64,000 bases of DNA from the NCBI GenBank assembly GCA_965213685.1, contig CBDBZY010000064.1, positions 1,571,322 through 1,635,321 of the forward strand, in the 5' to 3' direction. The translations under genes were made by a program, and so were the position numbers. The DNA comes from a bacterium. Its GTDB lineage: Bacteria; UBA8248. Positions 3,935 through 63,008 of the stretch are shown here, piece by piece. Under the pieces are notes generated by a model, which ran no database searches, had not been told where the DNA came from, and saw only the letters and a program-made list of their open reading frames with translations. Each line of letters opens with the position of its first letter. The first letter of the stretch is position 1.

Positions 3935-4325
3935 CAACATTTTCAGTGCTCACACTCGTGGAGAATCCACTTGGTTCGAAACAGCAAAGACCTAAACAAG
4001 CAGAGTGCAGCTATCCTGAAAACCACAAAAACAATGTGATGGTGCATGAGGTTCTCATGCTTACCTCTGTAAGAACCAGTGATTCTCCTTGCCAAGACTT
4101 GGTGCGCTCCTCCAGAGGGAATGAAGACGGCTTGTACCAGTGATTTCCATGAGGCATCTCCACTCTGTAGCCACTCCAACAAGGCCAGAGCAAGACATTC
4201 ATCAACTGCTCTCCCGTGCCGCTGAATCTGGTCCTGACTAGTCACTCCCAGGTGCACAGAAAATGAATACCATCTGGCAGACAGCTCATGTAGAGCACGG
4301 AATAGGTAGGGCAGGTGCTCATCAC
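3935..4325 (-). CDS. Extra death-domain exon (4065-4325, 261 nt, phase 1-1) plus 57-nt micro-exon (3935-3991)
   Basis: HLPYLFRALHELSARWYSFSVHLGV..DECLALALLEWLQ..ASWKSLVQAV has the death-domain W/LG/WL/SW pattern; CAG acceptor, GTAAG donors, 73-nt intron. Confidence 0.7.
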
Positions 4326-5461
4326 CTGGAGTGGTAATACAGTTAGTGGCTATTGTGGAGACTACCAACTGAACATGTTCTACTTAGTGGGAGTGAGGGC
4401 CTAAGGAGACAAAAATACATGTACTTCTTTTTTATAGCCTCCTTGTCAAAGTACTCCTCCACCTGCCCGGAACCTGTACTAAAGTACTGGATTCCCTGTT
4501 ATTCAATACTAGGACCAAGGTTGATGAAAGCCCAATGTACATGTACAACGCATGTACACGAGTATGAACTACATGTACATGAACAGCTGTACATGTACAT
4601 GTACCTCCATGAACTGGCTGCTAATCTGCTACACATACGTCTGAGAGATGCTACAATACCAGTAGTAGAGCAGATGGAAATTAGTCTAAGGGGCCATATT
4701 GGAGTAGGCCTTACTCCAGCAGGAGATAATTGCCAGGGTCAAAGTACACTGTACACACCTGTCAGTGTCTTGTGTTGGTTGGGTGCTCTACAGACACGAG
4801 GCAGTGAACACGGACCAGCATTGCTCATGCCATGAGTTTGTATAGAACAATAATTAGTCCTAACACGGATAGTTCTATCATCCATGGTCCTATGAGACTG
4901 CCCTCGTGACTTACACAAGTCATCCATGTCATCTTCGTGAATCTTCGCCAGCAGGTCCGCCAGCGCCTTGTCCTCTCTCCTACTCGCTATGGAACACATG
5001 ACAGGGCACATAGGACAGAGAATTATCTTCAAACTAAAGAGTATAACATCTATGTACGTACTTACACATTTCCCACAACGACCGTCACGTGGGCGAGTAC
5101 GCGTAGTACAATGATGTCACCAAGTTGTCTAACAATAGTTGCAAAAATTATCAACGTCTATGTGAAGCTGTTCTCGTAAAAATATCTGCTGCATGTTGGA
5201 TGTGAATTGTGTACCATCAGAATTTGTGACACATGTATACAATTCAAGATGTGCCTGAGGGTATTGTGCAAGTTTCTGTGACAAACTGTGTGAACATCAA
5301 ACCATTCCAATAAAGAATACTGAGAGATTAGTATGTGATCCTAGGCTCAAAAGGATTGCTATACAACCACTTGCAACAATACAAATGCATACATTCGGTG
5401 AGTATAGACATGTGCATGTATAGTAAGACATGACTAATTCCACAATTGACACATAATCACT

Positions 5462-60200: not shown

Positions 60201-63008
60201 CTATGAATATTGATTTTCAGAGCAGCCCTGAAAAGGTACACAGGAAACCGTTATCTTTGCATCACCCTGATAGGAAGAGTAAGGAGATTTCACACTTAGA
60301 AGTACATTTGTACAGTAGTAAGAGGACCAAAGCACAGCTTTGAAGTAGCACCTACCCTGCTGAGCCATGGCTTTTGAAGTACATAATAGCCCTTGGGAGA
60401 TACAAGTATAGGGTTTGATGATGGCTGTGTATGCTCTACGAGCCCGAAACAGGATGAGTAGAGCATACCAGCCATCATCAAACCTACTTGGTACATGGCC
60501 AAATCACTTACAGTATGTGTGTATAGTACTGTGTTGTCTGATTAGTACAAAACACTTCTCTACAGACAATAACACTGTAGGAAATACATGAAGCTATCGT
60601 CTATGAAATTTGTGCACATTAAACACTAATAATATATTGATGCAAATCAACATGTCACATGACAACATGCAGTGAAGACAATACTATTCTGCAAAATGAC
60701 AAAATCATAACACAATTGTAGAAGTACAAAGTGTGTGAGGGGATAGGCTGTATGATTTGCAAACAGTGCCACTAGTGCACGCTTTTTGTTTATGAGCCAC
60801 TGCATCGCTAGCCTGCGCAACATTAGACTATGTAGGGGTTGAGCAATGAACGGACAATAAATGTATCCTTTTTACAGATTCAACAAGTTGATGGTACAAT
60901 CTTAACGATGGCTGTAGTGATCTGGGGCTGATTGTGAAATCACATTTAAATAACTAACAACTAATGCAGTCCCAGTAGCACTTGCTGACCTTGCAACTTG
61001 GTAGTATATTTGAGTAGAACTCCCTATAGTGTGGATTTTTTTTCCACTGTGCCAAGAAAATGTAAATTCATTATCTGTTGCATACATAGGATCTAACTTA
61101 CCCAAAGTGTTGGAAAGATTTTTTCACCAAATCATCTGCTGTTGTATCGTTTGCAAGAATGAGAACAAACTCTTCAAACCATTTCTCTCGATTGTCTGAT
61201 GTATCAATCTTCGACTCAACACACCTCATCAAGCTACCAGCCCTGCTGGCTGGAGTTGATCCAGCAATATTGCGTAACTGGCGTGCTGCTATGAACCTTT
61301 TTTCTACAAGGCGAGTACCAATCACATCCATGTTCAGCTCAACAACATCAGTGATGTCTGTGAGGTGAATTCTCAGGACATATTTTTCAGGTAGTTCTCC
61401 GCAAGTCGACACTGCTGTGAAAATGTTCCACAATGGTAACTAGGTAGACAGTACACTGGTACGTGTACTTCTTGAGCCAACAATACAGCTACTATTGCCA
61501 AGTAACATGGTATATATACATCATGCTGTAAGTTAACCCTTATGGCATGTGGCAAATGCTTCAGACAGTACACAATCGGATGTGGTTAAGCATGTGATTC
61601 AGTTGTGTGTGTTTAATGGTCCATCTCTCTCCTCCTCTCATACTACAAAAAGCAGCCACTTTTAGTCAACTCTATTGACACTTTTTGTAGTATGAGAGGA
61701 GGTGAGAAATGGACCATTAAACACACACAACTGAATCATATGCCAGAAAAGATACATTTATTGTCCTCATTCATTTCCTTGTTGTTCATTCTAATTCTGA
61801 AGACTCAAAGAATTCAGAATGAATAACAAGGAAATGAATGAGTAATGACTGGACAATAAATGTATCCACTTTACCTGGCTGTGGTTGAGGAGGGGGTTGG
61901 GTGGCTGTTTGTGGGGGTGCTGGTGTTGTGGTGCTAGCTGGTGCTCCCAGCTGCTCACACAGGGTCTGCACTGCATCGACCTTCCCAGCACAATGTAGGC
62001 TAGTGGCTAGCTGGCGGTAGGTGGCCCAGGGCCCATTCCCTCTCCTTCCACAAGCGCAGAAGTGCTATCCTGCAGGCAGGAATTACAGGTAGAGTTGTAC
62101 AGTGTATTATGATCATATCAACATGTACATGTGATATGATTATCATCATATCAATGTACATGTATGGCTGCTACCTAAATAACCTGTAGCAGTCACATTA
62201 CACCTGCATGCTGCCTGCAGCACTCCATACACTCTATAGTTCTTCGAGCAGTACAAGTTATACTTAGTGGATGAGGTAGAGCGCATATAATGTTGATCTG
62301 CCTATAGGGCTATTGAATCTCACCTTCTAGGGTTGGGGGGCCAGGTATGGTGTTAGATTGGGAGGTAGTTGTACAGGTCAAGCATAATTCAGTGGAAATA
62401 TGGCCATAGATGACCCCATGCTTGTGACCTACTACCATGTATACAGTGGATCACATTTTAATATTGACACTAGCCAAGAACTAGTCTCGCGAGCCAGACC
62501 CTCATTATGAAGAAGTGGCTCACGAGACTAGCCAAGAGCATCACGTTGTAGGCTGGCTGCCATCCAAAGTCATCACTGTATTAATTCAGGGTCACCAGAA
62601 CTTGGAGTTACGTTATGGGAGAGACAGGACAGGGTAGACACTCTCGTGCAAAGCATTCAAGTTTTGGTTTGATGTGGCCCCTGGCAACAAAACAGTTATA
62701 GGAAGGCTGGTTTGCGTCTGGTACAGTCCCAGCCAAACTTGCACTGAGAATGTAGCTACGTAAATATTTAGGAGCGAGTATACCCACTCACTTTTGTTGT
62801 TCGTATGATAATCTATGGTCGTGTTCGATAGCTGCCACGTCATGTTCTTGTAGGTGTGGTAAGAAGAGTAGCACTCTCTGGCCAGTCGGAGATGGTCCTA
62901 GCGATGGTGGCGAGATGAATAGTATCTTTCAGCTTGTGGTCCAGAAGATGGCGTTTCTCAACTGGAATGGTATCTAGGAAGGCTTTCTAGAGGCACAATG
63001 GATGCCAT
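48205..63008 (-). CDS. Gene D: death domain - Pro/Thr linker - CARD - linkers - caspase-like C14 protease (exons 63008-62792, 62069-61875, 61411-61102, 57400-57323, 52234-52169, 51310-51281, 48950-48205; about 545 aa after removing four single-base insertions)
   Basis: Catalytic FSGHG and FIDACRG; phase-1 TAG acceptor at 48951-48953; CARD about 65/102 identical to gene C; split death domain HLATIARTISDWQRV..YEQQK|IALLRLWKERNGPWATYRQLA. Four +1 insertions in the 5' exons mean assembly error or a young pseudogene. Confidence 0.65.
49492..49655. repeat. GC-rich minisatellite with a unit of about 20 bp
   Basis: Repeats of GCCGTGTCGTGTCGGTGACC with variants. Confidence 0.8.
50075..53085 (+). repeat. 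Intronic direct duplication (about 50075-50560 versus 52484-53085)
   Basis: Near-identical sequence; duplicate pseudo-ORFs MHTGQIDVNTWASFEK. Confidence 0.85.
53909..55103 (+). mobile_element. Second near-complete HINE-like copy with head palindrome
   Basis: Body closely matches 11167-12140; same terminal hairpin at 55081-55100; spacer inverted relative to the first copy. Confidence 0.7.
55600..59520. mobile_element. Two large head-to-head foldback arrangements of the HINE-like family (about 55600-57030 and 57672-59520)
   Basis: Terminal hairpin motif on the minus strand at about 57673-57705 and on the plus strand at about 57000-57030 and 59482-59520; central palindromes at about 56280-56645 and 58530-58875. 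Confidence 0.65.
61592..61742. repeat. Intronic palindrome of about 150 bp
   Basis: TGATTCAGTTGTGTGTGTTTAATGGTCC.. / ..GGACCATTAAACACACACAACTGAATCA. Confidence 0.8.

Follow-up and report, generated by a model that had tools for sequence, protein, structure and literature searches.

A predicted CARD-linked subtilase and a caspase-like protease in a death-fold gene cluster of a probable sponge contig

Introduction

Which enzymes an animal death-fold scaffold can switch on is the question raised by a 64,000-nucleotide stretch of DNA, here called the window, which forms the last 64 kb of contig C64 (CBDBZY010000064.1; 1,635,321 bp, 44% GC), part of an assembly of 71 contigs deposited as a prokaryote genome (GCA_965213685.1). 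To our knowledge, the death-fold scaffolds of animals switch on caspases or kinases, and fungi and bacteria also use serine proteases. On the minus strand of the window, two predicted genes carry related CARD and linker exons and end in different enzymes, gene C in a subtilase of peptidase family S8 and gene D in a caspase-fold protease of family C14. A subtilase that would be recruited by death folds in an animal is the notable part of this locus, and what appears to be new is the swap of effectors, the CARD-subtilase with its NLR-linked clade, and a caspase predicted not to recognize aspartate.

The contig is likely an animal contig co-binned with a bacterium, and its host likely a sponge, because the look-alikes of the window CARDs in the Atlas fall mostly in Porifera clusters; the window itself contains spliceosomal introns, microsatellites, and retroelement remains. 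Most contigs of the bin (~8 Mb) have ~65% GC, and host DNA was defined as the 20 contigs below 56% GC and longer than 4 kb (4.89 Mb in total). The lower-GC contigs (~4.9 Mb), largely intron-bearing animal DNA, account for more than half the bases of a prokaryote bin whose rated completeness is 94% and contamination 3.7%. Because these 4.9 Mb represent little of the host genome, absence from the bin is weak evidence; the contig also ends 1 kb past gene D, leaving the right flank off the contig. Gene models were built by hand from minus-strand reading with splice-site and frame tests and describe predicted genes.

A predicted CARD-linked subtilase

Gene C is predicted to join a CARD to a subtilase, as a preliminary description of the window had proposed, and its 490-aa model on the minus strand has no internal stop. 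The first exon (32395-32080; splice model and predicted structure) carries the start codon and a CARD of what is here called the C type. It is followed by a Ser/Thr/Ala-rich linker exon of 78 nt in phase 1-1 (30050-29973; splice model and repeat comparison), a short phase 1-1 linker exon of 39 nt (28289-28251) that by eye resembles a gene D exon (51281-51310), a second 78-nt linker exon (25014-24937; splice model), and a terminal exon (24103-23142) that holds the whole S8 domain (Pfam Peptidase_S8, E 1.6e-38). The Asp/His/Ser triad and the oxyanion Asn are present, and across the family these positions are conserved in 31/31 (Asp), 30/31 (His), 30/31 (Ser), and 29/31 (Asn) rows. Sequencing run X1 agrees with the S8 exon region (23418-24175) except for one other letter, with no gap.

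The best solved relatives of the S8 domain are bacterial intracellular serine proteases (E 2e-22). The 490-aa model shows no hydrophobic segment or signal peptide, and Pfam finds in it only S8, with no I9 prodomain and no P domain. As modelled, the enzyme is unlike secreted subtilisins and proprotein convertases, being devoid of signal peptide and prodomain and having the convertases outside its clade. Because conservation among its relatives continues upstream of the first Met up to the splice acceptor, the S8 exon must be preceded by another, and the nearest start upstream is that of the CARD exon. Three other S8 versions (92-95% identity) and two CARD versions (89-90%) keep catalytic residues and frame, the differences among the CARDs lying mostly in residues 29-73. 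A decayed duplicate of the S8 exon, which the preliminary description does not list, lies at 20009-20720 on the minus strand, with 19 indels relative to the intact exon (sequence comparison and reads); its decay is read-confirmed, run X1 showing 0 other letters and 1 gap over 19954-20749.

The relatives of this domain lead to NLRs. About 33 of 70 S8 relatives of similar length score far above the named bacterial proteins, and the best two of 199 longer profile matches are NACHT-LRR-S8 proteins (213 and 194 bits, the third match having 115), namely P0092 (1537 aa, a single open reading frame with the order DD-NACHT-LRR-hydrophobic segment-S8, DD denoting a death domain) and P0093 (1373 aa, a single open reading frame with NACHT-LRR-S8). 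In a tree of 82 of 167 S8 domains, computed by a quick method without bootstrap, P0092, P0093, and gene C share one 36-row clade (SH-aLRT 100, stem 1.01), from which convertases and prokaryotic S8 domains are separate. This membership is the best independent sign that the S8 clade may act in death-fold immunity. P0037 was also seen to group with P0092 and P0093. Scans of DNA for the S8 domain returned none of the sponge clade among at least 80 genome loci (prokaryote titles, best segment <=34%) and none among at least 79 metagenome loci (mostly 23-36%, with two short segments at 40%).

A caspase-like protease

Gene D, on the minus strand, is predicted to encode a DD, a CARD, linkers, and a caspase-like protease. 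Its first exon (63008-62792) holds the first half of the DD and two 1-bp extra bases, the second (62069-61875) the second half with a Pro/Thr linker and one 1-bp break, and the third (61414-61102) a C-type CARD, 64% identical to that of gene C, with an extra base at 61119. Linker exons of 78 nt (57400-57323, of the same family as the gene C linkers), 66 nt (52234-52169), and 30 nt (51310-51281) lead to a terminal exon (48950-48205) with the whole caspase-fold C14 domain and its His-Cys dyad (Pfam Peptidase_C14), the sole C14 match in the bin.

The earlier claim of a DD-CARD-caspase-like gene stood directly for the 3' part, which is open through the C14 exon; in the three 5' exons, the frame is broken by four extra single bases no more than 2 kb from the contig end. 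Two of these, at 61119 and 62977, are missing at full depth in 3/3 covering runs (independent, from two studies), and so are several neighbouring 1-bp differences in non-coding sequence. For the break at 62880, the matches of three runs stop there with three letters left unfitted; of 31 indel rows, the 12 listed do not include the break near 62036. Because two extra bases are missing in 3/3 runs and the contig end is error-prone, two of the four frameshifts are likely assembly errors and gene D is likely intact; a pseudogene was rejected for these two breaks on the same grounds. Read through with X at the breaks, the model gives a DD (independent E-value 9e-9), CARD, and C14 over ~546 aa, with the predicted joins in frame. 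More generally, comparison with three read sets shows at least seven 1-bp indels in the interval 60900-63200, within 2.3 kb of the contig end, and frameshifts near the contig ends of this assembly are therefore to be distrusted.

The predicted structure of the C14 domain (pLDDT 83.7) matches caspase chains at Z 25-25.6 (for Z 25.6, root-mean-square deviation 2.9 and 212 aligned) and MALT1 at Z 21.1; it has the caspase-haemoglobinase fold with a His-Cys dyad, both residues occurring in 21/21 family rows. P0087 is a C14 relative with a DD in the same open reading frame. The aspartate pocket of caspases, formed by Arg179, Gln283, and Arg341 (caspase-1 numbering), is absent from gene D: at the caspase-7 pocket positions (Arg, Gln, Arg) it has Leu, Asp, and Met, and its family has Leu in 20/21 and Asp in 20/21 rows at the Arg and Gln positions and an Arg at the third in 1/21. 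Since all three pocket residues are replaced, D is predicted to be no equivalent of caspase-2 or -4, and a caspase-2/-4-like output is not borne out. Compared with an acidic S1 pocket, two Asp positions agree in the family (20/21 each) and the third is not matched. D likely does not cut after Asp; by comparison with the pocket residues of metacaspases and MALT1, it is predicted to cut after Arg or Lys.

MALT1, a type 1 paracaspase, has the architecture DD-Ig-Ig-paracaspase-Ig. D resembles MALT1 and the metacaspases in that an Asp precedes the catalytic Cys by two residues and a Leu takes the place of caspase Arg179, and resembles MALT1 in its predicted death-fold prodomain. Unlike MALT1, it is closer to caspases in sequence and fold, it has no Ig domains and a stop directly after the C14 domain, and its third pocket position is Met.

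Shared modules and their possible linkage elsewhere

Genes C and D appear to be built on one chassis. Their CARD exon with downstream intron is 78% identical over 436 nt (31959-32391 versus 60980-61405), and a linker exon with intron is 70.5% identical over 492 nt (29681-30108 versus 51832-52293). In the 8-Mb bin the 78-nt linker family occurs four times, twice in C, twice in D, and nowhere else; most other shared blocks are repeats with 57-180 copies. The terminal exons encode unrelated enzymes, each whole in one exon. The simplest history would be the duplication of a CARD-linker gene followed by replacement of its last exon.

Identification of the CARDs relies on structure and profiles, as Pfam calls none of the window CARDs above cut-off and its CARD search of the bin gave 1 match, below cut-off. 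The predicted structure of the C-type CARD (74 rows, pLDDT 85.8) is closest, among 48,161 chains, to the CARDs of Dronc, Apaf-1, CED-3/4, and caspase-9 (Z 11.2-11.8, deviation 1.9-2.6, ~90 aligned); the top matches include one de novo designed protein (Z 11.7), DD chains reach <=9.1, and nearly all 50 listed matches are death folds, such Z values being modest for helical bundles. A profile against solved sequences has MDA5 as its best match (E 0.002). With a profile of four C-type copies, 184 relatives were found at E <=0.001, and some of the 50 scanned are CARD-DD, tandem CARD, CARD-STAND, or CARD-NACHT proteins, so that the C-type CARD is also found on NACHT/STAND and CARD-DD proteins. The second CARD type, A/B, is identified by Atlas look-alikes and by a profile match to the C type (92% probability, 17% identity).

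Both protease types also seem to share contigs in three other assemblies, where contigs were taken as the same by equal size in bp and positions within them are not given. A 3,067,820-bp contig has an S8 domain 92.5%, a C-like CARD 89.5%, and a C14 domain 100% identical to those of the window; a 669,407-bp contig has five S8 domains (56-60%) and one C14 (61%), and a 4,099,672-bp contig one S8 and two C14. These matches suggest that the two protease types accompany each other in at least one sponge more distant than this one. A placement of P0092 on contig C56, drawn from a 93,323-bp match, was rejected, as C56 does not encode P0092.

An identical C14 beside a CARD-S8 diverged by 5-11% may reflect allelic polymorphism or paralogy, and from this contrast on the 3,067,820-bp contig a different function can be argued: a polymorphic CARD-subtilase in colony self/non-self rejection, or one that cuts and so inactivates adaptor filaments instead of executing a signal. 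The concentration of CARD changes in residues 29-73 is in keeping with this, as is HET-Q2 of Podospora, a subtilisin-like allorecognition protease (PMC8851545). The variants, known as protein sequences only, may nevertheless be paralogues or come from other species and not be alleles, and no partner gene such as a gasdermin lies beside gene C; a role in allorecognition or inhibition is accordingly held to be improbable.

Adaptors and cluster

Two CARD-DD adaptors on the minus strand were confirmed with GT-AG introns and open frames. Adaptor A (194 aa) has a CARD exon of the A/B type at 10315-10030 (splice model, Atlas, and profile match) and a DD exon with stop at 8603-8305 (Pfam Death and splice model); adaptor B (197 aa) has a CARD exon at 8136-7851 (splice model and comparison) and a DD exon with stop at 5769-5462 (Pfam Death and splice model), and an optional 27-nt exon (6001-6027) is also in frame. 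The two CARDs are 62% identical, with synonymous divergence (dS) ~2.5 and a ratio of nonsynonymous to synonymous rates (dN/dS) of 0.12 (~100 codons, rough). In the 3' part of D, as in A, B, and C, every junction between modules is phase 1 and GT-AG, and the frames are open. The additional DD exon of the preliminary description is present at 4065-4325 on the minus strand; it is internal (phase 1-1), has a paralogue at contig position 1553100 (66%), and its gene likely runs on to DD exons left of the window.

The cluster extends ~26 kb further left, to contig position 1545269; this stretch holds another seven DD exons and another two C-type CARD exons, including those of the CARD-DD adaptors G (1549906, 1549155) and H (1546861, 1545582). 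The two-domain CARD-DD architecture of RAIDD/CRADD is thus found in A, B, G, and H. The CARD of G, 21-22 kb left of the window, is as close to the CARDs of C and D as these are to each other, the three being recent duplicates (dS 0.30-0.38), a pattern that Kaur et al. describe for bacterial effector-associated domains (PMC8195603); the CARD of H is older than these duplicates. Because the CARD of G is close to those of C and D, and that of A and B is a distant type, G would most likely be a better partner for C and D than A or B, if like binds like. A complex prediction for the CARDs of A and C scored 0.06 against a mark of 0.32 and gives no answer either way. A distant A/B-type CARD exon, 24% identical to that of A, was noted at 19857-20123 of contig C56.

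The density claimed earlier holds: the window has 3 DD matches where 0.51 are expected, and the last 90 kb of the contig have 10 where 0.72 are expected (from 39 DD matches in 4.89 Mb of host contigs, with a profile seeded with window DDs), whereas other host contigs have <=3 per 64 kb. Two different protease outputs, S8 and C14, lie within it, and the proposed turnover by birth and death is seen in the decayed S8 duplicate and the recent CARD duplicates. All 16 of 16 death-fold matches in the last 90 kb share a strand; this co-orientation is not special, because contig C18 also has 15/15 DD exons on one strand, there over 813 kb and with several identical. Taken by itself, a death-fold cluster is ordinary for a sponge.

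RAIDD/CRADD and caspase-2 belong to the PIDDosome, and the preliminary description had interpreted the cluster as PIDDosome- or inflammasome-like. Such a unit would be co-regulated, A and B linking a DD sensor to a protease of the caspase-2/-4 kind, with a GBP as platform and a peptide as output. CARD-DD adaptors do lie beside a CARD-bearing caspase-fold protease, the local density is real, and in Hydra a DEATH-NACHT protein and a DD-caspase have been co-precipitated (PMC3879445). Differing from RAIDD/CRADD and caspase-2, the locus and its left extension have at least four CARD-DD paralogues with two CARD types and a protease that combines DD and CARD. Several findings speak against such a unit. 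The protease has no aspartate pocket, the A/B CARDs are of the distant type (17% identity in the profile match) with G closer to the protease CARDs, and the GBP is broken, on the other strand, and derived from another locus. As described earlier, neither an NLR nor a gasdermin lies in the window, and no PIDD-like gene was seen there; in the bin, 13 NACHT matches were found, none over cut-off, and no NACHT exceeds it on the 1.6-Mb contig. Gasdermin (PF04598) had 0 matches at E <=1 in the bin, with its 4.9 Mb of host DNA, so that the HET-Q1/HET-Q2 pairing of a gasdermin beside a protease is not found in the bin. Porifera, moreover, are reported to have NLR and caspase-1-like genes without GSDME (PMC11508797). 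The module proposed in that form is unsupported and considered very unlikely.

A quite different view would see here an exon-shuffling nursery without a working pathway, in which the CARD-S8 gene would be recent, unspliced, or neutral and decaying like its neighbours. The decayed S8 exon, a GBP pseudogene, broken ankyrin exons, a calcineurin fragment, and retroelements fill the window, the CARDs of C and G have dN/dS 0.92, and co-oriented DD arrays occur on other host contigs too. Decay is hard to reconcile, however, with a gene C open over 490 codons, with S8 and CARD versions that keep catalytic residues and frame, with an S8 clade tied to NLRs elsewhere, and with protease types that co-occur on contigs at ~60% identity. 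On balance a nursery is judged unlikely, if less so than the preceding alternatives.

Proposed mechanism

It is considered probable that C and D, encoded in a tandem cluster of shuffled single-domain exons, are effectors that adaptor or NLR polymers would recruit through CARD contact and that clustering would activate. An upstream death-fold sensor encoded elsewhere, as sponge NLRs carry DD or CARD, would nucleate the CARD-DD adaptors; the polymerization of sponge adaptors with a nucleation barrier is described (PMC13012725). An adaptor CARD, most likely that of G, would then recruit C or D through CARD-CARD contact, and clustering would activate the protease: D would dimerize, and C would be freed of its N-terminal part. 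Cleavage by D would occur after basic residues, and the substrates would probably not include a gasdermin. The CARD chassis with its swapped enzymes would likely give the host a fungus-like immune protease switch. More tentatively, and with slightly less than even confidence, a sponge immune branch may be envisaged in which a cytosolic subtilase executioner of its own clade, behind a CARD or on NLRs (DD-NACHT-LRR-S8), is swapped with a non-aspartate caspase on one recruitment chassis, in parallel to fungal and bacterial systems and apparently without gasdermin.

Several observations weigh against recruitment by CARD contact. The models of C and D rest on sequence, with no transcript joining CARD to S8 or DD-CARD to C14: among 15 runs that hold the sequence none is listed as RNA, and contigs of four runs, compared over 17400-31700, showed no exon-exon joint among the 15 listed of 346 matches, the compared stretches reaching neither gene C's CARD exon nor the C14 exon. 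(Two small runs from a single study, neither of them recorded as RNA, end at 23036, 106 nt beyond the S8 stop, and were not used as evidence.) S8 or C14 occurs in the same open reading frame in 0 of 50 CARD relatives scanned (of 150 listed), which is weak either way because most relatives are single-exon gene calls; besides P0092, none of the S8 relatives compared scored with DD or CARD profiles, again weak either way. The CARDs of C, D, and G diverge fast (dN/dS 0.61-0.92, ~100 codons, rough), which could reflect relaxed constraint or loss of cross-binding. The S8 tree left out 85 domains, mostly long prokaryotic matches. The linkage of S8 and C14 elsewhere was drawn from equal sizes in bp without positions, and one such match proved a coincidence. 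Lastly, the basic specificity of D was predicted from the pocket residues of metacaspases and MALT1, with the third acidic residue of MALT1 unmatched.

Comparison with known systems

One of the closest known parallels is fungal. In fungi, gasdermin genes lie in clusters with those of S8 or caspase-like proteases, some of them carried by NLRs, and HET-Q2 and HET-Q2-like systems use cytosolic S8 and caspase-related (CHAT) proteases as interchangeable immune effectors, much as is proposed for C and D (PMC8851545). As in P0092 and P0093, S8 domains are found directly on fungal NLRs (PMC8851545). Unlike fungal HET-Q2, in which the S8 domain is N-terminal on an NLR and clustered with a gasdermin, the S8 domain here is C-terminal and CARD-joined, with no gasdermin in the bin (PMC8851545). 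The same source contrasts fungi with mammals, which use CARD adaptors, and the present locus would combine a subtilase effector from the fungal side with CARD adaptors from the mammalian side (PMC8851545).

In bacteria, CARD-like domains of Lysobacter and Azospirillum head proteases that are required for gasdermin activation (PMC10312443). As in bacterial systems, the death fold of gene C is N-terminal to a non-caspase protease (PMC10312443; PMC8195603), and near-identical death folds are common to adaptor and effectors of one genome (PMC8195603). The bacterial systems differ in being operons, the proteases named for them being trypsin- or caspase-like, whereas the subtilase here sits on an animal intron-exon chassis (PMC10312443; PMC8195603).

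Among sponges, NLR and death-fold expansions likewise comprise large, shuffled DEATH/CARD repertoires, clusters, and NLRs with transmembrane segments (PMC3879445; PMC12909245), and a NACHT-caspase architecture is given in a supplement of PMC12909245. The main texts of PMC3879445 and PMC12909245 do not contain "peptidase" or "subtil", three supplements of PMC12909245 contain no Peptidase_S8, PF00082, or "subtil", and the main text of PMC11874512 contains no "subtil", "peptidase", or "sponge". No sponge CARD-subtilase, NLR-subtilase, or caspase with this motif was found in the literature searched, most subscription papers lying outside the search. If real, a CARD-subtilase, an NLR-subtilase of its clade, and a caspase with a rebuilt pocket would show that protease outputs are exchanged on a shared recruitment module in early-branching animals, and C and D provide small single-exon enzymes with which to ask what sponge NLR signalling cuts, given the reported lack of GSDME.

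Neighbouring sequences

The remaining sequences that had been drawn into the module, as well as a calcineurin fragment, are bystanders, so that the earlier statement that all parts lie on the minus strand holds for the death-fold and protease genes and fails for the GBP. The GBP-FN3 sequence (17722-19744; Pfam GBP and fn3) was correctly described as a pseudogene; it lies on the plus strand and is a stray copy with 89-92% protein identity to a tandem array on another contig, which leaves no basis for a GBP platform. It has deletions of 11, 25, 8, and 2 nt, and assembly errors were rejected as their cause in view of the multi-base deletions and the intact array copies, the reads not covering the breaks directly. 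The array (178906-375627 of contig C16) consists of ~28 GBP-FN3 genes without introns, whose hydrophobic C-terminal segment differs from copy to copy, 23/28 genes having open reading frames of at least 695 aa.

The peptide previously regarded as a secreted component (39281-39606, minus strand; 71 aa, two exons, hydrophobic N-terminus, six Cys) is single-copy in the bin and has no Pfam or solved-structure match, and nothing ties it to the cluster. The ankyrin-like exons are present on the minus strand as five remnants (44920-47050; Pfam Ank), broken by a stop and frame breaks; they lie downstream of the stop of gene D and do not belong to the module. Two exons of a calcineurin A catalytic subunit, likewise absent from the preliminary description, were seen at 36217-36345 and, by eye, at ~34950-35032, both minus, with no other exons seen nearby. 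A long (GA)n run interrupts a broken non-LTR retroelement with RVT_1 at 14205-16885 on the minus strand. Three tRNA-like sequences (Lys, Ala, Ser; 35173-35246, 36025-36100, and 45989-46062) adjoin the orphan calcineurin and ankyrin exons and are possibly tRNA-derived repeats. Palindromic interspersed repeats reach <=180 copies in the bin, and one 1.2-kb pair (10967-12154 versus 53911-55118) is 90% identical.

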